Positions 10,709 through 19,611 of a DNA stretch of 52,152 nucleotides are shown in pieces. The translations under genes were made by a program, and so were the position numbers. Each line of letters opens with the position of its first letter. Position 1 is the first letter of the stretch. The stretch covers positions 1 to 52,152 of IMG/VR virus record IMGVR_UViG_3300021197_001711. One strand, written 5' to 3'. Below the pieces are notes generated by a model. That model did no database searches. It saw only the letters and a list, made by a program, of their open reading frames with translations, and had not been told where the DNA came from. This stretch comes from a virus (Duplodnaviria; Caudoviricetes).

Positions 10709-12298
10709 ATGGATCAACTGGATGAAGCCAAACTATTAGCAGCTCTTCTCGGTGTACTTAAAAAAGAAAACAGCAGAGTAAAAGACGAGCTACTAAAAGA
10801 AATATATGGAAGCCTCCAGAAGGACATCCAGGATCAAACTGGTGTCAAATATCTTGAGCTAGACGAAGTTGAAAACCCTGTACCCATCCAAGTTTTTAAA
10901 GGTGAGAAGGGTGCTGAAGGTCCGCAAGGTAAGCGGGGTCTAAAAGGTGCAAGAGGTGATGTAGGTCCTAAAGGAGAGCGAGGAGCTCTGGGCCCTCGAG
11001 GAGATGTCGGTCCTTTGGGTCCAATGGGACCCCAGGGTATTCGTGGTGTTGCAGGTGAACAGGGCCCAGCTGGTAAAGACGGTGCTGATGGTATAGATGG
11101 TAACACACCTGACATTAAGCCGCTCGAGGATAAGTTTACCAGACTCTTCAACGAATTCAAAGGTTCTGTATCCGCCCAAGTCACTCGAATGGCCTATGCA
11201 AAGAGTCCTACTTCTGGAGGCAGTTTTGCAGGTTCAGGTGAAGTAAATTTATTACGACTGGATGACGTTGACACAACCAGTCTTGCTGATGGTAAATTTT
11301 TAAGATATAATGCTACCTCTGGTAAACTTGAATTCGTAGAGGGTTCGGGTTCTGCTGATCTATCGAGTTACGATGGTCACATAATACCAGGGGCAAACAA
11401 TACATACGATCTTGGTTCAGCTCAGCGTCAATGGCGTGATCTGTATTTGAGTGGCACGTCCCTTTTTATTAATGGTGTGCCTGCGATACAGCAAGATCCT
11501 GAAACAGGTAATATCGTATTATCTGCAAATACTGTTATACAAACAGCAAACGGTGTAAACAATCCTGTAGCATCGCAACCAAACTTAGACGTCTATCTTG
11601 AAGTTGCTAACGTATCTTCAATAATGACCTCGCGACTTGAGCCTTATCTTAAAGTAGCAAACAGTACCAACTTTGCAACAACTTCAGACCTCAATAACTA
11701 TCTTCAAGTAGCAAACAACTTCAGTGGTGCATATGGTGATCTGACTGGTAGACCTAGCTTAGATGTATATGCATCCAACACCGCCTTGCAATTAAAGGCT
11801 GATGCAGCTGACCTGGGTCAATACTTACAGGTAGCAAATAACAAAACAATTGTTGCTGGTAATAATGTTTCACTTACAACTAATGCAACGTCTATTGTAA
11901 TAAACAGTACAGGAGGCGGTGGCGGAGGTGGTGGAGATCTTGATCAGTATCTACAAGTTGCCAATGCAACATCGTTATTATCTAACAAAGCTGATACAGC
12001 ATTATTAAATGACTATCTACAAGTTGCCAATACGGCTAATCTGATAACTAGCGTACAAAACCAAGGTGCTGGTCAACCACTAGTCAAGAGTAACATAAAT
12101 AATATACTGACCTTAAATACATTGAAGGCCGGTCCCAATATCACCATAGAAGAAAACAGTGATGGTGAGATAGTAATTTCAGCGACAGGAGAACTCTCCG
12201 TCTCTGATTCAATTGATTTTGGTTTTGTTAATAACGATTTCGGATCCATTGCTGATGCAGCAGAATCCGATCCTCAATTCGATTTCGGAACACTATAA
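10709..12298 (+). CDS. Collagen-like fibre protein with YLQVAN repeats
   Basis: 23 consecutive Gly-X-Y triplets, six YL(Q/E/K)VAN repeats, three C-terminal DFG motifs. Confidence 0.8.
   Translation: MDQLDEAKLLAALLGVLKKENSRVKDELLKEIYGSLQKDIQDQTGVKYLELDEVENPVPIQVFKGEKGAEGPQGKRGLKGARGDVGPKGERGALGPRGDVGPLGPMGPQGIRGVAGEQGPAGKDGADGIDGNTPDIKPLEDKFTRLFNEFKGSVSAQVTRMAYAKSPTSGGSFAGSGEVNLLRLDDVDTTSLADGKFLRYNATSGKLEFVEGSGSADLSSYDGHIIPGANNTYDLGSAQRQWRDLYLSGTSLFINGVPAIQQDPETGNIVLSANTVIQTANGVNNPVASQPNLDVYLEVANVSSIMTSRLEPYLKVANSTNFATTSDLNNYLQVANNFSGAYGDLTGRPSLDVYASNTALQLKADAADLGQYLQVANNKTIVAGNNVSLTTNATSIVINSTGGGGGGGGDLDQYLQVANATSLLSNKADTALLNDYLQVANTANLITSVQNQGAGQPLVKSNINNILTLNTLKAGPNITIEENSDGEIVISATGELSVSDSIDFGFVNNDFGSIADAAESDPQFDFGTL
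10901..11107 (+). repeat. Collagen Gly-X-Y repeat region
   Basis: GEK-GAE-GPQ...GID-GNT, 23 triplets counted from the translation. Confidence 0.9.
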
Positions 12299-12301
12299 TA
12301 A

Positions 12302-15300
12302 ATGGCTGTTGAAGTAAAACTCAGACGCGGTACCGCCAATCAGCACTCGACTTTTACGGGTGCAATTGGCGAAGTGACTGTCGACATTACTAACGATACC
12401 CTGCGCGTACATGACGGGGCATTGGTTGGTGGCCATCGTTTAGCCAAGCATAGCGATATTGGCTCTGCTGGTGCAAACACTGGTATGGAGCTTACGCTCG
12501 ATACCCCAACTGATGGAAGTTTAACAAATTCAGCAGCATATCAAAATTTTACTACAGGCACAAAAGTTACCGATGCGATCGATGTTCTCAATCAAGTTAT
12601 TGATAATGTTCGCAACAATACTTTCATCAAGTCTGTATCGTTTACAGCAAATACAACATCTCTCGGTGCTGGAGGAATGGTATTCTTTCAATTCACACCA
12701 GATGGGACTGCCAATCAATATGAGATTGATTTCGGTGATGGATCAGCTAATTCAACTCTATCCACTTCAACGATAGCTCACACGTACTCCACTAACAGTG
12801 GTTCACCGTTTACCGTATCGCTGACTGCAAGAAACACCGGTGGGTCTGGTGAAGGTAGTGAGGTTACTTTTTCGAGAAGTAACTATATAACCATTTTTAC
12901 TGCTGACCCCAATATGGCGTTTGGTATATACGGTGCATCATCAGGTGGATCTACTATATCCTTTGTTGATGATGGAACCCCAGTATACCTTAAGAACGAT
13001 TCGACTGATATCGGTAGTGCAACAGTACAGTACACGGTGGATTGGGGTGACAGCAGTGCCAACAATACAATCACTGACGACACAGCAAATGGTGGATCAG
13101 CTGGTGGTAGACTTGCTCATACGTTTACAACCAGCACAGAGCGAGAACAAACGTACACGGTAACGACAACATTAGATTCGCACTCGACAGCCAATCCAAG
13201 CGTAATACCCGATTCAGCAACTGCACAGATCAAAGTATATGATACTCATACGCCTGAGGTTGTATTAGATGCAAATACAGGTATCAATACCAGCAGTGGT
13301 GTAACGGTAACTGCAACAAACAATACTGAAAACACAATAGGTAGTTATGCTGCTTATGGAATCCAGTATCTGTGGACTTGGGGTGATGGCGACACAAATA
13401 CGGTGAACACAGGTTCAGGTAGTGCAGGTGATACTGGTGGTAATATAACACATAACTACTCATTGTCAAATTCACAACAGAATGCTGGTACCGCAGTCGA
13501 CTATGTTGGTAATCTCAGAGTAACGAGCAACCACACTTCTAGTCCGTTTATTAGTACCAACTTTGTCGTGCATGTGGAGCCCGAGCTTAGAGCTGCCATA
13601 GGCGTTGATTCAACAACAAGTGCTTTGAAAGCGTCTAATGATTCTTCCAATGTACTTTATAAAGAATTGGACCTGAGTGGTGCAAACAGAGCAATAGCAA
13701 GTGTCACTAACACTACACAACATGGCAACACATATGTTTATGCCTGGGGTGACAGTACTACAAATTCTGTTACAGAAGCGGGATCGCCAGCTGGTAGTGT
13801 TTCAGGCTCAGCCATAACGCATGACTATCAGTCTGCTTCTGTTGGTACCTATAGCATAACACTAACTGCAAATGGACAACCAGATAGATCTGGTCAAACA
13901 GCCTCCGCATCATCCTCAGTGGTATTGAAGAACATTCCTTCAGCCCCTGCTGGACTAAGTTCCAAATCTATAACGCTATCGCAATCTGCTCAGGGCACCA
14001 GTAAACTTGCTTCGGGATTTGTTGACAATACTGGTGGTCTTATTACTGCTGGCTCTAGTTTAAATACAAACACAGCAAGAAGGTATACATCTACAACTAC
14101 CATAACATCTAGTACTGTTTCTAATGTTTACGATTCAAGCACAGGAACATTATCAGCAATTTGGAATGGTTCAGCAGCAGGAGCTCAGGCTTTCAGTACA
14201 GCTACTGGTCAAACTGGTACCAATAATAACTTGCAGATCACATCAGAAGGTGATGCATACAACGAAATAGCTACTACGTATCCGCAGAACTACTATCAGG
14301 TTTTTACTGCTAATTTTACCAGAGATATTGATGGTGAGTCCGCTGGTGCAAACTATGCAAGACTTAGTCACTCAACTACTGGTGATACAAACAATGTTTT
14401 TATAGTTAAGGATACGGTAACCGCTTCTCCAACTCTTAATATAGGAAGTGCAACTCTCGCTGAGCAAACGGCCGGCTCTTATCGGTACGTGTCTGGTATA
14501 CCTTATTATAATACTGGCTCACCAAAACTCAGACTTACAGGTGCGACTGTAGATAACTTGGTTGGACAAGCATATCTCGATAGTTCAAATATTGTAAGAA
14601 TAATGAATGGAAGCAATGATGAGGGAACATCAGATTCTGTAGTATCAACACATTACAGAGGATACAGCGACATAGATGGCGACTCCACAATGCTGTCGAG
14701 TGGTGTACCAATAGCTAACACAGGTGTGGGCAACGCTTATCCATTAGGTAACATTATTGCCGATATAACATCATCATCTGTTGCAGCTGTAGAGACTATC
14801 AGATTCGATATAACGAATGTTAACGGTACGAGTAGTAATGTCGAGCCATCTACTAAGATACAGGTTCATACGGCGTCTCCTACGTTTAACGAGGCGGCCA
14901 TACCAGTGGCAGATAGTCTTGGTTCAACGTTTGATACCGATGGCGTACGTATTACCGGTTTGACCGGAGCTACTCCTTCTTTTAGTAGCTCGACTGATTA
15001 TTACGTAGATAATGCGTGGTCTGGTGCAGAAACTGTTGCCGGTACCGATGAAGCTATAGTAAGATTTAATACATTAAAACATTATAGTACTAACCTGTCT
15101 TCTGGTTACTTACCAGTAGGCCCTGATCTCAATACAGGCAGATCTGGTGCTCAGTACTTTAGATTTGCTTTTAAACGAACACTGGTAGCCAACTTTAAGA
15201 TAAGGCTTACAGGAACAGTCTCTGGACTCTTTATAGCAGCTCCTGGAACTGCAATTGATTCTGCATCAACTCTTAACGGTTGGTTAGATACATCTATACA

Positions 15301-15535
15301 GTTCGCGGGGTCAGGTGTTCCAGGTGGCAATACAGGTAATGGAGGTAATGGATCAAACGGATGCGCTTCAACAGGTTCTGATATTATAGCAGACGGACAG
15401 AGTTATTCTAATCAGGCGTTCACCATGACGCTTGGATCTGAAAACTTATCCAATGCACATAATAATCAATTGTTAATTGCTGTCAAGTTAGAAAGCGGTG
15501 ACTCTTTAACATCACTGTCGATAGAGGCTGCATAA
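12302..15535 (+). CDS. Large virion protein: Mtd_N-like N-terminus plus four PKD/Ig-like domains
   Basis: VKLRRGT..HSTFTGAIGEVTVD..LRVHDG N-terminus; PKD-like cores IDFGDG, VDWGD, WTWGDG, YAWGD; S/T/G-rich. Confidence 0.75.
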   Translation: MAVEVKLRRGTANQHSTFTGAIGEVTVDITNDTLRVHDGALVGGHRLAKHSDIGSAGANTGMELTLDTPTDGSLTNSAAYQNFTTGTKVTDAIDVLNQVIDNVRNNTFIKSVSFTANTTSLGAGGMVFFQFTPDGTANQYEIDFGDGSANSTLSTSTIAHTYSTNSGSPFTVSLTARNTGGSGEGSEVTFSRSNYITIFTADPNMAFGIYGASSGGSTISFVDDGTPVYLKNDSTDIGSATVQYTVDWGDSSANNTITDDTANGGSAGGRLAHTFTTSTEREQTYTVTTTLDSHSTANPSVIPDSATAQIKVYDTHTPEVVLDANTGINTSSGVTVTATNNTENTIGSYAAYGIQYLWTWGDGDTNTVNTGSGSAGDTGGNITHNYSLSNSQQNAGTAVDYVGNLRVTSNHTSSPFISTNFVVHVEPELRAAIGVDSTTSALKASNDSSNVLYKELDLSGANRAIASVTNTTQHGNTYVYAWGDSTTNSVTEAGSPAGSVSGSAITHDYQSASVGTYSITLTANGQPDRSGQTASASSSVVLKNIPSAPAGLSSKSITLSQSAQGTSKLASGFVDNTGGLITAGSSLNTNTARRYTSTTTITSSTVSNVYDSSTGTLSAIWNGSAAGAQAFSTATGQTGTNNNLQITSEGDAYNEIATTYPQNYYQVFTANFTRDIDGESAGANYARLSHSTTGDTNNVFIVKDTVTASPTLNIGSATLAEQTAGSYRYVSGIPYYNTGSPKLRLTGATVDNLVGQAYLDSSNIVRIMNGSNDEGTSDSVVSTHYRGYSDIDGDSTMLSSGVPIANTGVGNAYPLGNIIADITSSSVAAVETIRFDITNVNGTSSNVEPSTKIQVHTASPTFNEAAIPVADSLGSTFDTDGVRITGLTGATPSFSSSTDYYVDNAWSGAETVAGTDEAIVRFNTLKHYSTNLSSGYLPVGPDLNTGRSGAQYFRFAFKRTLVANFKIRLTGTVSGLFIAAPGTAIDSASTLNGWLDTSIQFAGSGVPGGNTGNGGNGSNGCASTGSDIIADGQSYSNQAFTMTLGSENLSNAHNNQLLIAVKLESGDSLTSLSIEAA

Positions 15536-16327
15536 ATGGCAATTTCAGACGATCAAAAACTTGACTATCTTTGGAAGAAACTTGGGTACGGTGTATCCAA
15601 GACTGACGTCAATAGTAACAAAGGTGCCATCAACGAATCTTTGCCTAGTCCTCTTTTACTGCGGGGCGACAAAGTTTGGAGAGAAGCTGCTTCGATACCT
15701 GCAGCTATGCCTGGTTCAAGTGCTGGTGTAGTTACAGTATATCCTACTTCGGCACCTGACGAAACAACAGCTGATAATACAGCTACAGCAAATAGAACAT
15801 GGAAGACGGGTCTAACAGATTGGATACCGCCTGAGATAGGAAGCTCATATCAAGTTAAAGTATACGTACACACTTCTGGTGATGCAAGCAATGCAGCGTC
15901 AAGTGGTACTCAATTGTTCGCAGCTGGTTCTGGTAACAATGATGAGTGGTTTTTTGACTACCAATCAGGTATACTTAACTTTATAGGTACAAACTTACCC
16001 AACGGTATTAATTTTAGTGGTAAAAGTATCTATATATCGGGGGCAAGATATACAGGTACATTCGGTGTAGCAGCCTCTTCAAATGTAAGTGCTATACTAA
16101 GCAATGCTACATTAACAGGCAACACAACTATATCGACGTTAATATTGAGCAACGTCCTAGGCACTCAATATGGTGGCACTGGTCTTTCATCGTTCACAGA
16201 GAACGGTGTAATGATTGCTTCCAATACGTCAACGTTGGGATTTGCAACAGGAACCTCTGGCGAAGTTCTTCAAGTAAGATCTGATGGTGTACCGACATTT
16301 GATGACCTGGATGGTGGCAATTTCTAG
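15536..16327 (+). CDS. Virion structural/fibre adaptor protein
   Basis: Abuts the upstream stop; EWFFDYQSGILNF; YGGTG fibre motif; ends LDGGNF. Confidence 0.7.
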   Translation: MAISDDQKLDYLWKKLGYGVSKTDVNSNKGAINESLPSPLLLRGDKVWREAASIPAAMPGSSAGVVTVYPTSAPDETTADNTATANRTWKTGLTDWIPPEIGSSYQVKVYVHTSGDASNAASSGTQLFAAGSGNNDEWFFDYQSGILNFIGTNLPNGINFSGKSIYISGARYTGTFGVAASSNVSAILSNATLTGNTTISTLILSNVLGTQYGGTGLSSFTENGVMIASNTSTLGFATGTSGEVLQVRSDGVPTFDDLDGGNF

Positions 16328-16560
16328 TGAATGAGAACGAAAAGATTTTAGAAATTTATATACAGCAACAACAAGAAAAAATTAATGAGCTGACACAGCA
16401 GTTATTAATGGCATCAACTCGTAATAAATATCTCGAAGAACAGCTAAATAGTGTTAGCGCTAAACTCGAAACATACGATACTATAAATAGAAAAAAAGCG
16501 AATGAAGTGAAAGGCTTCAATCTCAATCTTAGCAAGAAAAAACAACACCCTGAACGATAA
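16327..16560 (+). CDS. Small coiled-coil protein (possible fibre chaperone)
   Basis: GTG start overlapping the upstream TAG; Q/E/K heptad pattern. Confidence 0.6.
   Translation: MNENEKILEIYIQQQQEKINELTQQLLMASTRNKYLEEQLNSVSAKLETYDTINRKKANEVKGFNLNLSKKKQHPER
16482..16489 (+). promoter_or_regulatory. Internal T4-type late promoter for ORF 16601
   Basis: TATAAATA inside the 77-aa ORF, ~110 nt before the next ATG. Confidence 0.6.
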
Positions 16561-16600
16561 ACCCAACCTTTAATTCTATCCATTAACGAGGAAAATAATA

Positions 16601-18130
16601 ATGGCTTCAGTAATTAAACTCAAAAGGAGCGCAGTCTCCGGATCCGTCCCTAGCTCGCTAGCGGCCGGTGAGCTTGCAATTAATACAGCGGATAAGAAGC
16701 TGTTTTCATCAGACGGTTCTTCCGTCTTTAACGTAGCTGGTGATCTGTATAATGCAGTGACTCAAGCTAACTCTGGCACAGGCGGTGCTGACATCGTATT
16801 GACTGTAGATAATGAATCTCTGTCAAACGATGCCATTGAACTTGTTGGTGGTACAGGTATTACTGTTTCACGAAATGCAAACGGTGCAATTATTGTAACA
16901 ACAGATGGTGGCGGTAACGCTGCTGGTCTGACTGGTGCTGTTACTGTTGCATTGGCTGGTGACGTTACGGGTTCTGCTACATTCCAGAATGCTGGCGACA
17001 CTGCTACAATTACTACAACTATCGCAGATAACAGCCTTGTGTTGGGTACTGCTACTACTGGTGACTATGTTGCAAGTCTTGTAGCTGGTACAGACATGGT
17101 TATCACCAACAACTCTGGTGAAACTGCTACTCCTACTATTGCATTGAACAACGGTATTAGTGCTAATACATCTGGTAACGCTGGTACTGCTACTGCATTG
17201 CAAAATGCTCGTACAATTGGTGGTGTATCATTTGATGGTACTTCAAACATCAACCTTCCTGGTGTTAACACTGCTGGTAACCAAGATACTTCAGGTAATG
17301 CAGCAACAGCTACTAAATTGGCATCTTCTGTTAACATTGGTGGTACAGCGTTTGATGGTACTATTAATATTAACTTGGCTGGTGTTAACATTGCTGGTAC
17401 CCAGGATACGTCTGGTAATGCAGCAACAGCTACTGCACTAGCAACTGCTCGTAGTATTGGTGGCGTATCTTTTGATGGTACTGCTGATATTAACCTCCCA
17501 GGTGTTAACGCAACTGGTAACCAGAACACGACTGGTACTGCTGCTGCTTTGACAACAGCTCGTACAATCGCGCTTGCTGGTGACCAGGTTGGTTCTGCAT
17601 CGTTTGATGGTACTGGTAACATTTCCATTACAACACAAACACAAAACAATAGTGTTGATTTGGGTGCTCACACAACTGGTAACTACGTTGCTACTGTAAC
17701 TGGTACAGCTAATGAAATCGAAGTATCTGGTTCTGGTTCAGAGACTGCTGGCGTACAGATTGGCTTGCCAAGTGATGTTACGATTGGTAACGACTTGGTT
17801 GTTTCTGGCGACACTTCATTGACTGGTGGCTTGACAGTTGGCGGTAACTTAGAAGTTAACGGTACTCTGACATACATCGATTCAACTACAGTAACGATTG
17901 GCGATAACATGCTTAAGCTCGCCAATACCAACATTGCTGATACACTTGATACTGGTTTTTACGTACAGTACAACGATGGTGCCAAGAAGTTTGCCGGCCT
18001 GGTTCGTGACGCTACCGATGGTTCTTTCACGTTGTTTGAAGAGCTTTCAGCTGAACCCAATCAGCAGATCAACTTCAGTAATACAACCACAGCAACCCTC
18101 AACGCTAACATTGATGGCGGAACCTACTAA
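16601..18130 (+). CDS. Fibre protein with 40-aa repeats
   Basis: IKLKRS..GELAINT N-domain; repeats ARTIGGVSFDGT.NINLPGVN; ends IDGGTY. Confidence 0.8.
   Translation: MASVIKLKRSAVSGSVPSSLAAGELAINTADKKLFSSDGSSVFNVAGDLYNAVTQANSGTGGADIVLTVDNESLSNDAIELVGGTGITVSRNANGAIIVTTDGGGNAAGLTGAVTVALAGDVTGSATFQNAGDTATITTTIADNSLVLGTATTGDYVASLVAGTDMVITNNSGETATPTIALNNGISANTSGNAGTATALQNARTIGGVSFDGTSNINLPGVNTAGNQDTSGNAATATKLASSVNIGGTAFDGTININLAGVNIAGTQDTSGNAATATALATARSIGGVSFDGTADINLPGVNATGNQNTTGTAAALTTARTIALAGDQVGSASFDGTGNISITTQTQNNSVDLGAHTTGNYVATVTGTANEIEVSGSGSETAGVQIGLPSDVTIGNDLVVSGDTSLTGGLTVGGNLEVNGTLTYIDSTTVTIGDNMLKLANTNIADTLDTGFYVQYNDGAKKFAGLVRDATDGSFTLFEELSAEPNQQINFSNTTTATLNANIDGGTY
17171..17530 (+). repeat. 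Three degenerate 120-bp (40-aa) tandem repeats
   Basis: Units start TC(T/A)GGTAA at 17171, 17291 and 17411; a partial fourth follows. Confidence 0.85.
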
Positions 18131-18148
18131 TAGGTATCTAATGATGGT

Positions 18149-18170
18149 ACGGGGCTTCGGCCCCGTTCTT
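18149..18170 (+). terminator. UUCG hairpin terminator (weak U tract)
   Basis: ACGGGGC-TTCG-GCCCCGT then TCTT. Confidence 0.7.
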
Positions 18171-18200
18171 ACATAAACATCAAAATAGGAAGAGATAACT

Positions 18201-18839
18201 GTGGCATCAATAATTAGGTTAAAGAGAAATAACTCGGCCGGTAATGCGCCATCTTCACTAGTAGCTGGTGAAGTAGCGCTTAATACCAACGACAAACGTC
18301 TTTACTCTTCTGATGGTTCCGCTATATTTGAAGTGGGTATTAACCCTCATCAGTTATCTGTTGGTACTGGTGGGTTATCTGTTGGTAATGGTGCGTTCTC
18401 GCTACCATCTGCTGACGGTTCATCTAATCAAATATTACAAACAGACGGATCTGGTAATGTTACTTGGCAGACATTCTTTCCTGCTAGTAACACAGTAACT
18501 ATTCAGACGAGTACAGTTGTAGCAGATGTGACGACTCAAATGAGCTCGTTGACATCTGAATCTAAAGTTGTTGCAAATCCACAAGGTTTCATTTCATTAA
18601 CTTCGCAGAACAATGATACGATAAAATTACCGTATTTTGGTCCAGAACTTGATGGTGTTCCTGTATACATTGATTTACGTAACGTAGGTAACGTAACGAA
18701 TGCATATTTGCAAACAACTTTTCAAACCAAAGCACAAGCATTAACAGCTAATAATGCAGTTAATAATCTTGTTCTTGACAGAGTACAAGTAGCTAACTTG
18801 AATTCAAGTCTTGCTACATTAGACGGTGGTACTTTCTAA
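18201..18839 (+). CDS. Short fibre protein, paralogous N-domain
   Basis: GTG start; IRLKRN..GEVALNTNDKRLYSS; DGSSNQILQTDGSGN motif; ends LDGGTF. Confidence 0.75.
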   Translation: MASIIRLKRNNSAGNAPSSLVAGEVALNTNDKRLYSSDGSAIFEVGINPHQLSVGTGGLSVGNGAFSLPSADGSSNQILQTDGSGNVTWQTFFPASNTVTIQTSTVVADVTTQMSSLTSESKVVANPQGFISLTSQNNDTIKLPYFGPELDGVPVYIDLRNVGNVTNAYLQTTFQTKAQALTANNAVNNLVLDRVQVANLNSSLATLDGGTF

Positions 18840-18866
18840 AAGAAAGTAGTACAATAACTATGTGAC

Positions 18867-18891
18867 GGGGGACGTTCGCGTCCCCCTTTTT
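18867..18891 (+). terminator. Rho-independent terminator
   Basis: GGGGGACG-TTCG-CGTCCCCC-TTTTT. Confidence 0.85.
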
Positions 18892-18945
18892 GATTAACTT
18901 GTGTATATACATGAGTGATTTCTCTATATAGAGGTTAAGTATAGC

Positions 18946-19611
18946 ATGTCAATTATAACGCTTAAGCGGAGTTCCGTAGCCGGTAAAATACCGACAACAT
19001 CAAACTTATCCCAAGGGGAGCTCGCGCTTAATACTAACGATGGACGATTATATTCGTCTAATGGCACCAGTGTGTTTGAAATCGGTGCTAGTGTTCATTC
19101 CCTTTCCGTAGGTGCTGGTAATTTTTCTGTTGCCAATGGCACACTCACATTTCCTACAACAGATGGATCGGCCAATCAGTTTCTCAAGACTGACGGCAGT
19201 GGTAACCTATCGTTTGGTACCCCAAGTCCCAGTAGGCAAGCAATACATATTATAACGTCCGATACGTTACTCGATTCTTCAGACCATGACAGCGCTGTAG
19301 TAGTCAACACTACCAATAACGTCAAGATAGAACTGGACGAATCTACAAATCTCACGGTAGGAGATAAATTCACAATTCTCCCCGTTAAAACTACAACAAT
19401 CACAATAGAGCTCGAAGGATCCGACTACTTTATGGGTAGTCCATCATATTCAACGTTGCAAATAAATGTCCTGAAGGACACGCAGATCAGCAGTTATCAA
19501 AACACTACAATTGATACAGCATCAGGTGTTGAAACAATTTCAGCAGCTCTATACTCTAAAATAGAAGTGTTGTATGTTGGTGCTAGGAAGTTTGTTCTGG
19601 TCAAGCAATGA
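18946..19611 (+). CDS. Short fibre/tip protein, paralogous N-domain
   Basis: ITLKRS..GELALNTNDGRLYSS; DGSANQFLKTDGSGN; distinct C-domain without a DGG end. Confidence 0.75.
   Translation: MSIITLKRSSVAGKIPTTSNLSQGELALNTNDGRLYSSNGTSVFEIGASVHSLSVGAGNFSVANGTLTFPTTDGSANQFLKTDGSGNLSFGTPSPSRQAIHIITSDTLLDSSDHDSAVVVNTTNNVKIELDESTNLTVGDKFTILPVKTTTITIELEGSDYFMGSPSYSTLQINVLKDTQISSYQNTTIDTASGVETISAALYSKIEVLYVGARKFVLVKQ

Follow-up and report, generated by a model that had tools for sequence, protein, structure and literature searches.

The stretch analysed here, called the window throughout, is an entire 52,152-base linear viral contig of a marine phage (IMG/VR record IMGVR_UViG_3300021197_001711; estimated completeness 28%), which by gene order and translations is a T4-like myovirus with sheath, tube, portal, fibre block, prohead protease, scaffold and major capsid protein. 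No cultured phage has a capsid protein more than 67% identical to this one, the best matches being a Stenotrophomonas phage, cyanophages, and the Methylophilales and Pelagibacter myophages, and a megablast of the fibre block against 50,697 phage records returned no near-identical DNA. Between the portal and prohead protease genes, four proteins of 529, 263, 509 and 212 amino acids (aa) end in the motif hydrophobic-D-[G/F]-G-x-hydrophobic, and four proteins of 1077, 509, 212 and 221 aa open with a domain that resembles Mtd_N and the N-terminus of T4 gp37. The initial annotation had read the terminal peptide as a plug and the N-domain of the next gene product as its socket, terms that we retain, and its seven open reading frames (ORFs), together with every terminus quoted for them, were all recovered. 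The elements on which this reading turns are the following.

10709–12298, plus strand: 529-aa proximal fibre protein, with a helical N-terminal segment, a collagen triple-helix repeat (residues 64–116) and YLQVAN-type repeats
12203–12295, plus strand: triple D-F-G tail of the 529-aa protein (residues about 499–529), putative plug for an RRG-type socket
12302–15535, plus strand: 1077-aa protein, starting MAVEVKLRRGT..GEVTVD, with an RRG-type Mtd_N socket, a repeat-rich middle and a conserved C-terminal domain
12314–12421, plus strand: RRG-type Mtd_N socket of the 1077-aa protein (residues 5–40), found with Pfam
Residues 539–1075 of the 1077-aa protein, plus strand: conserved C-domain (phrog_8578), terminating ...LIAVKLESGDSLTSLSIEAA, putative upstream half of a second joint
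15536–16327, plus strand: 263-aa connector, with an N-domain (phrog_9417, residues 1–186) and the ending LDGGNF
16301–16324, plus strand: putative plug DDLDGGNF of the 263-aa protein (residues 256–263)
16601–18130, plus strand: 509-aa segment, starting MASVIKLKRS..GELAINT, with a GELAIN-type socket (residues 1–50) and T4-fibre-like repeats
18110–18127, plus strand: putative plug IDGGTY of the 509-aa protein (residues 504–509)
18201–18839, plus strand: 212-aa segment with a GTG start, starting MASIIRLKRN..GEVALNT, with a GEVALN-type socket
18819–18836, plus strand: putative plug LDGGTF of the 212-aa protein (residues 207–212)
18946–19611, plus strand: 221-aa end piece, starting MSIITLKRS..GELALNT and ending FVLVKQ, with a GELALN-type socket and no plug

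The 529-aa protein terminates ...IDFGFVNNDFGSIADAAESDPQFDFGTL, and its collagen repeat scores 38.7 bits with PF01391 (Gly-X-Y), above the cut-off of 27.2. Across the 170 six-frame ORFs of at least 60 aa in the window, regular expressions located the terminal motif in only the four proteins named above and the N-terminal motif in only the other set of four. Under a chance model built on the window's own residue frequencies, the motif [LIFV]D[GF]G.[FYLIVW] has a per-terminus probability of 4.3e-5, and the probability of finding it at the ends of at least four of the 61 plus-strand genes is 1.9e-12. Counted anywhere in those 61 genes, it occurs five times against 0.70 expected, every time in one of the four plug proteins, and it ends none of the 479 minus-strand ORFs of the related loci described below. 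The minus-strand ORFs of the block itself give no evidence for genes, the longest (194 aa, 17065–17649) lying within the repeat region of the 509-aa gene and being most likely a by-product of the repeats, and the others being short.

Among the sockets, only that of the 1077-aa protein passes the gathering cut-off of Pfam PF18454 Mtd_N (26.3 bits), with 45.2 bits, or 49.6 in a six-frame scan. The 212- and 221-aa proteins remain below it at 18.6 and 13.7 bits, and the 509-aa protein gave no match at E <= 0.1; in the six-frame scan these three socket proteins score 19.8, 15.5 and 13.4 bits, again below the cut-off, and a genome-wide scan at E <= 10 recovered the same four N-termini and no others. 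Judged by sequence, the 509-, 212- and 221-aa N-domains resemble the Mtd_N family but are not members by threshold. The N-termini of PHROG families labelled "long tail fiber protein distal subunit" match those of the 212- and 221-aa proteins.

Order of plugs and sockets in related viral loci

Relatives of the 263-aa protein number 364 in viral contigs, and 80 loci were examined; a search for related viral loci seeded with the 212-aa protein found no relative. A second profile scan, seeded with ten GELALN-type N-domains, gave 570 relatives and 77 further loci of many architectures, in which the plug/socket grammar recurs. In the set of 157 related viral loci (designated by L numbers) with 1881 non-overlapping ORFs, a socket lies within one or two genes downstream of 122 of the 137 strict-plug genes, against 172 of 1457 non-plug genes, as the plug-and-socket reading had predicted. 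Viewed from the other side, a strict plug stands one or two genes upstream of 115 of 199 socket genes and of 54 of 1395 non-socket genes, and with a wider motif these figures become 175 of 203 and 109 of 1108. When socket-protein bodies (residue 61 to the end) were clustered at 40% identity and 80% length, 56 of 64 clusters had a plug upstream in most of their members; this stricter clustering was used because a looser one merged 166 of 190 bodies into a single cluster through shared fibre repeats and was useless for lineage counts.

Close relatives of the block (L001–L016, L043 and L076) keep its order, in which a protein with a D-[FY]-G tail is followed by an 866–1086-aa RRG-socket protein, a 26x-aa D-G-G plug protein, a small coiled-coil ORF, one to three socket-and-plug proteins and finally one or more socket-only proteins. 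Seeming exceptions are variants of the motif, namely IEGGSF, IDGATY, LDGGTFS, VDGGSYS, and DYG for DFG. The triple D-[FY]-G tail is also present in L001, L002, L005, L006 and L014, and the N-domain type of the 221-aa protein (K[IL]KR[ST]S..G[KR].PTTSN...GELALN..DGRLYSSNGT) again belongs to the last chain member in relatives. D-G-G-type plugs and GELALN-type sockets, read by eye in ten complete chains, are equal in number in eight of them: 3/3 in the window, L001, L002 and L005, 2/2 in L004, L043 and L076, and 4/4 in L012; the count is 3/4 in L008 and in L015.

These counts bear on a further proposal of the initial annotation, that the 509- and 212-aa proteins are extenders able to polymerise with themselves. 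That they build fibres of indefinite length, with the triple D-F-G tail serving as a branch point for several 1077-aa trimers, strikes us as quite unlikely. Each of the two proteins does combine a D-G-G plug with a GELALN-type socket, a combination for which the motif alone would allow self-docking; the triple motif is conserved, cryo-electron microscopy (cryo-EM) data point to two Mtd trimers on each fibre of Bordetella phage BPP-1 (PMC2408619, in the text accessible to us), and the socket protein in excess of plugs in L008 and L015 could point to branching or alternative tips. Yet not one of 34 distinct socket-and-plug proteins shares its terminal 6-mer with the plug upstream, and the plugs differ by position, with IDGGT[YF] preceding socket-only end pieces in 21 of 40 cases and LDGG[DSNE]F ending plug-only proteins that precede socket-and-plug proteins in 11 of 19, which indicates position-specific pairing; relatives, moreover, add a separate gene for each extra segment (one to three socket-and-plug genes). 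Because the 6-mers differ, the counts match and the gene order is conserved, the evidence favours position-specific pairing in a defined hetero-oligomer, as in T4, and it is compatible with cross-reaction. The self-polymerising extenders of the initial annotation are not supported.

The same loci alter the part given to the 263-aa protein, which had been proposed as a free initiator. It does carry a plug and no socket, but its N-domain (MAIS..QK.DYLWKK.GYG) always lies directly 3' of a 1077-type C-domain, in all 61 loci with an upstream gene (51 by a strict regular expression and 10 variants by eye), and in 34 of the 51 strict loci the two genes overlap by one base at stop and start. The 1077-type C-terminal domain has the consensus ..NATGNV.LVRI.L.SG.S.TALS.. 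(window 15400–16100; L001–L080). In Caulobacter phage CcrSC (L160 7112–11889) this arrangement is chained twice, from gp130 to gp131 to gp132, where gp130 ends in the C-domain, gp131 has both N-domain and C-domain, and gp132 has the N-domain and the end IDGGTF. From these sequences, the C-domain of the 1077-aa protein is probably joined to the N-domain of the 263-aa protein by a second conserved joint, and with that link all six proteins could form one fibre.

Several tails in the related loci depart from the common pattern. In L009 (3240–3653), L015 (3826–5727) and L008 (4100–5446), D-G-G-x-F is internal and is followed by an extension of 18–19 residues (..RDGGSFDTDALEANVSFLLSTTGD); the next gene in L015 (495 aa) has no socket, and the corresponding position in L008 is taken by a socket-only protein of 448 aa. 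The arrangement suggests another mode of joining, or a split or fusion. In L047 (13227–17977), three paralogues of 498, 615 and 457 aa end in ..DFGDL...SDSHGGLGGF, with no socket gene after them. A structural protein of about 330 aa with the plug-like end ..GDDFGF.G..F (L027 4173–5165, L032 4273–5274, L064 4776–5771) sits two to three genes 5' of the chain; it is maybe a neck or baseplate protein and could be the anchoring point of the chain.

Pairing types and the modelled contact

The initial annotation had distinguished two pairings, of D-F-G tails with the RRG type of socket and of D-G-G tails with the other type. A census of 159 distinct pairs of plug tail and socket from marine loci gave the following counts.

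D-G-G tail with GELALN socket: 84 pairs
D-G-G tail with RRG class (FKRG group): 2 pairs
D-G-G tail with unclassified socket: 11 pairs
D-[FYL]-G, terminal, with RRG socket: 13 pairs
D-[FYL]-G, near-terminal, with RRG socket: 4 pairs
D-[FYL]-G with GELALN socket: 0 pairs
D-A-G tail: 3 pairs, one for each of three socket types
No motif by regular expression: 42 pairs (GELALN 20, RRG 3, other 19)

Many of the 42 pairs in the last row are visible variants, such as LDGGEDGF, YDGGGA, INGGNF and DDWGSVA. The two pairings largely hold in marine loci (84 and 17 against 0), and that of D-[FYL]-G with RRG occurs in several architectures (the window clade, L084/L088, L095/L106/L116, L054, L023/L036 and BPP-1). 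Their universality does not hold, since T4-type phages join a D-[FY]-G tail to a GELAIN-type socket, and the cyanophage-like FKRG group, whose socket passes Pfam Mtd_N at 38.6 bits, takes D-G-G plugs; a strict two-letter code as a universal rule was rejected because these two groups pair differently.

For one cognate pair of the window, the joint was modelled as a complex of three copies of residues 1–75 of the 509-aa protein and three copies of residues 179–263 of the 263-aa protein, using our own alignments of 12–13 relatives each. As the initial annotation had expected, the model placed a confident interface at the predicted plug and socket residues, with a complex score of 0.86 (runs 0.86, 0.86 and 0.85) against 0.01 for the best of three controls (0.00–0.01). 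In a benchmark, 58 of 80 solved complexes and 2 of 110 mismatched pairs attained the mark for this score; these counts apply only roughly here because own alignments and 3+3 copies were used. The runs have at least 87% of their contacts in common, and the predicted local distance difference test score (pLDDT) of the partner is at least 91. The predicted interface involves residues 241–249, 254 and 256–263 of the 263-aa protein and residues 1–11, 15–18 and 26 of the 509-aa protein; the contacts of lowest error run from residues 257–262 to residues 3–9, so that in the model the plug tail looks like a strand laid along the first beta-strand of the N-domain (residues 3–9). In a sequence search of the PDB, free Mtd was the sole form of the socket (6 distinct sequences at E <= 1; 1yu0 and others), and the 263-aa protein had no relative there; the confident complex is therefore unlikely to be the memory of a solved homologous complex. 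The model supports binding without proving it. An AlphaFold2 monomer of the 263-aa protein from a 12-row alignment had a mean pLDDT of 35.2 and was unusable.

The two features could instead be independent, the terminal motif being a folding or chaperone tag or simply the end of a fold, and the N-domain a generic baseplate anchor, in fibre genes that are merely clustered. We regard this as very improbable. Fibre genes do cluster, 143 of the 150 best socket representatives lack a plug by the strict motif, and some plug proteins (CcrSC gp132, and those of L114, L130, L139 and L150) have no N-terminal socket nearby. Against this stand the specificity of the enrichment for the immediately downstream gene, the covariation of plug type with socket type (84/17/0), and the T4 pair, which is a known physical joint as described in the accessible text of PMC3004832; the complex model, for its part, predicts the two features in contact, with near-zero scores for its controls. 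Adjacency, the T4 and BPP-1 pairs and the complex model all support the original proposal that the terminal peptide is a plug for the N-domain of the next gene product.

Fibre architecture

We consider it probable that the block encodes a segmented virion fibre, in which homotrimers are joined end to end in gene order through a joint between C-terminal tail and N-domain. One part of the joint would be the extreme C-terminal tail, hydrophobic-D-[G/F/Y/L]-G-x-hydrophobic, and the other the N-terminal domain of about 50 residues in the next protein, from the family of the BPP-1 Mtd N-domain and the T4 gp37 N-terminus. The order would most likely be 529 to 1077, with the D-F-G tail entering the RRG-type domain, and then, again most likely, 263 to 509 to 212 to 221, with D-G-G tails entering GELALN-type domains; the 1077- and 263-aa proteins would probably be linked by the second joint, between the C-domain of the former and the N-domain of the latter. 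By analogy, such a fibre would work as the T4 gp36-gp37 junction does, with three or four junctions in series. As in the T4 long tail fibre, the genes of the block are adjacent and follow the order of the proposed assembly. What the sequences show are the features themselves, how they are placed and conserved, and the homology of the sockets with the N-domains of gp37 and Mtd; the contact comes from the model, and the trimeric state, the polarity, the site of attachment to the virion and the link between the 1077- and 263-aa proteins are inferred.

Which end would attach to the virion is a separate question, and we think it unlikely that the same joint operates in the reverse architecture, with the socket-only member anchored in the virion, the 221-aa protein as the base and the 263/529 side as the tip. 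Small plug-only proteins (61–99 aa) head many chains, and in cyanophage P-HM1 the depositors named the socket-only protein of 2425 aa gp7 baseplate wedge initiator, and its PHROG families carry the label baseplate wedge subunit. Neither label is more than an untested annotation, however, and Pfam gives Laminin_G_3 alone in the P-HM1 protein. In T4 the plug protein, gp36, lies on the proximal side of gp37, and the socket protein Mtd is located at the fibre end in BPP-1, as far as the accessible text of PMC2408619 and PMC3567102 describes it; both favour a fibre whose plug-only side would be the proximal one.

Several observations weigh against a segmented fibre built in this way. At E <= 0.001 the N-domain profile matches 25,619 cluster representatives, of which 3,050 remain at E <= 1e-10, and in 149 of the best 150 socket representatives the match starts at residue 1 or 2. 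Only 7 (strict motif) or 16 (relaxed) of these 150 carry a plug, so that socket-and-plug segments are a minority and most sockets probably attach to other partners or form the end of a fibre of two parts. The depositors' gp7 label for the socket-only member of P-HM1 leaves the polarity unsettled. The fibre gene upstream of the socket in phage S-PRM1 ends in ...KAKVDDLSK and forms no canonical pair, and CcrSC gp132 ends in IDGGTF, yet the only socket there is internal, in gp134. The one socket in excess in L008 and L015 (two of the ten chains) is likewise at odds with a simple series. The loci are mutually related, and the adjacency counts are not independent events. The homology of GELALN-type and RRG-type sockets is only moderately supported, a comparison of their profiles with hhalign giving E = 4.3e-4 and a probability of 34% over residues 1–40 against 1–38. 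Finally, the contact predicted between plug and socket of the window proteins is the model's own confidence.

Internal sockets are few: the best 150 representatives include eight in six proteins, two or three of them with an I-D-G-like or GGTL-like stretch just upstream. That of CcrSC gp134 (L163 1501–1614), a GELALN-type socket reading IRYRRSQ..REIALNEFDG in an open frame of 2777 codons, lies 224 residues before the end and matches the internal phrog_11583 match seen with the 212-aa protein.

Three other elements of the block may bear on assembly or expression.

16327–16560, plus strand: 77-aa predicted coiled-coil protein, with weak coiled-coil-type matches only in Pfam
16482–16489, plus strand: TATAAATA, T4-type late-promoter-like motif, 112 nucleotides 5' of the 509-aa gene, within the end of the 77-aa ORF and the sole copy inside the block
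18867–18886, plus strand: terminator-like G+C-rich hairpin with a T-run between the 212- and 221-aa genes (8 pairs, 7 of them G-C), a consensus match only

In most related loci, an ORF of the 77-aa type keeps its place between the plug-only protein and the first socket-and-plug protein, and in most chains a small coiled-coil ORF (68–147 aa) separates a plug protein from the socket protein that follows, as at window 16327–16560, L164 8844–9050, L168 2200–2436 and L026 9224–9547; that of cyanophage S-B43 ends in ..GDGGTFE, plug-like in turn. The 77-aa protein is a candidate assembly factor and could be a chaperone. The motif TATAAATA, which we take to be the T4 late-promoter consensus, has 13 matches in the window against 3.6 expected, all on the plus strand. 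With the hairpin at 18867–18886 and the copy at 16482–16489, the block may be divided into transcription units that set subunit ratios.

A wider claim, which we advance only tentatively and think doubtful in its full form, is that tailed phages share a connector grammar readable from sequence, comprising at least two orthogonal pairs (D-[FYL]-G with the RRG type and D-G-G with the GELALN type), further position-specific residues that fix the partner, a second joint (a ..NATGNVVLVRIAL.SG.S.TALS.. C-domain with a MAIS..QK.DYLWKK N-domain, chained twice in CcrSC), and a triple D-F-G tail that mounts more than one distal trimer. Were it true, the order, the length and perhaps the branching of fibres could be read from the genome and re-wired. 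If the simpler rule of plug and adjacent socket holds, fibre partners and their order would be readable from sequence across the very large N-domain family, which consists mostly of proteins of uncultured phages annotated as hypothetical. It would also provide a residue-level account of how gp36 holds gp37 and how Mtd is mounted, which in the literature, as far as its accessible text goes, is only presumed; a defined seam for swapping receptor-binding segments between laboratory phages; and a corrected annotation, as fibre connectors, for several small "hypothetical" or "YadA-domain" proteins.

Comparison with known phage systems

Six of the eight cultured phages examined, namely T4, Klebsiella phage VAC66, Acinetobacter phage 133, BPP-1, P-HM1 and S-B43, have a plug/socket pair whose genes are adjacent or separated by a single small gene, and the socket occurs in 310 phage records, among them 75 of Synechococcus and 10 of Prochlorococcus phages. 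The initial annotation had supposed the arrangement undescribed, which is right only in part. According to the accessible text of PMC3004832, the physical joint is textbook knowledge for T4; the shared sequence rule was not found in the literature searched, where, within the openly accessible text and leaving aside subscription journals and supplements, we found no statement of a C-terminal motif and N-domain as a general connector or as common to T4 and BPP-1. A motif-level rule may be in print elsewhere.

In T4, the gp36 trimer is attached to the N-terminal region of gp37, an established joint (PMC3004832, in its accessible text), and the distal rod is (gp36)3-(gp37)3 in what is accessible of a 2026 cryo-EM preprint (10.64898/2026.03.06.709160); the accessible T4 literature gave no statement that the last residues of gp36 form the interface. 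T4 gp36 ends in ...VIKDSVQDFGYY (QDFGYY), and gp37, the product of the next gene, starts MATLKQIQFKRSK..GELAINLKD (IQFKRSK). A profile of the window and marine N-domains matches residues 1–53 of both T4 gp37 (48.8 bits) and BPP-1 Mtd (48.3 bits), and whole-genome profile scans found exactly one socket in T4 (gp37, 52.8 bits) and one in BPP-1 (Mtd). Pfam Mtd_N did not detect the gp37 N-terminus at E <= 0.1, so the link between gp37 and the socket comes from our own profile. A tblastn search with residues 1–55 of the 221-aa protein found gp37-like genes of Klebsiella, Acinetobacter, Enterobacter and Yersinia phages. The end D[FY]G.[YF] is present in 118 of the 120 gp36 homologues listed (of 316 found), the other two being one residue short and partial, respectively. 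In Klebsiella phage VAC66, IIDFGSY is followed by QFLRS..GELAINM, and in Acinetobacter phage 133, VLDYGEF is followed by KFLRS..GELAINL.

In phage BPP-1, Bbp9, a putative tail fibre protein encoded directly upstream of mtd and mentioned in no paper that we found in the open literature searched, ends in ...GLADLGGIA, a D-L-G tail that resembles those before RRG-type sockets in L054, L023 and L036. The Mtd N-domain matches the window profile, and the 1077-aa protein passes Pfam Mtd_N; BPP-1 differs in being a podovirus with a single joint, whose Mtd, a receptor binder of the C-type-lectin kind, owes its diversity to a retroelement.

The cyanophage clusters follow the same grammar as the window, with a small plug-only protein, a socket-and-plug protein, a small coiled-coil ORF and a socket-only protein. 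In Prochlorococcus phage P-HM1 (genes 092–095) these are a 73-aa protein ending ..VNGGSF, a 559-aa protein with a socket and IDGGTF, a 68-aa coil and the 2425-aa socket-only protein; in Synechococcus phage S-B43 they are a 79-aa protein ending ..YDGGSF, a 589-aa protein with a socket and IDGGTF, a 78-aa coil (AYR01720) and a 315-aa socket-only protein. They differ from the window in their places in the genome, in the giant end member of 2425 aa and in their annotation, which is hypothetical, YadA-domain or gp7, with no joint proposed in the records.

Branched receptor-binding complexes, such as the tailspikes of CBA120 and G7C gp63.1/gp66, dock through dedicated adaptor domains. The concept of gene-encoded, modular docking of trimers is shared with the window, whereas the docking domains appear to be different.

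T4 is the closest parallel: its genes, like those of the window block, lie next to each other in the order of assembly, the profile of the window N-domains matches the gp37 N-terminus, and the gp36 tail has the terminal motif. It differs from the window in having one joint, with one socket per genome, where four sockets and four plug-bearing tails follow one another in the window, and in combining a D-F-G tail with a GELAIN-type socket, which none of the 159 marine pairs does. gp36 itself belongs to PF03903 (178 bits), which gave no match at E <= 0.1 in the 529-, 263-, 509- and 212-aa proteins; the window plug proteins share its terminal motif alone, and the 263-aa protein is no gp36 homologue. 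The block would be the T4 gp36-gp37 joint extended over several segments, and no new kind of system.

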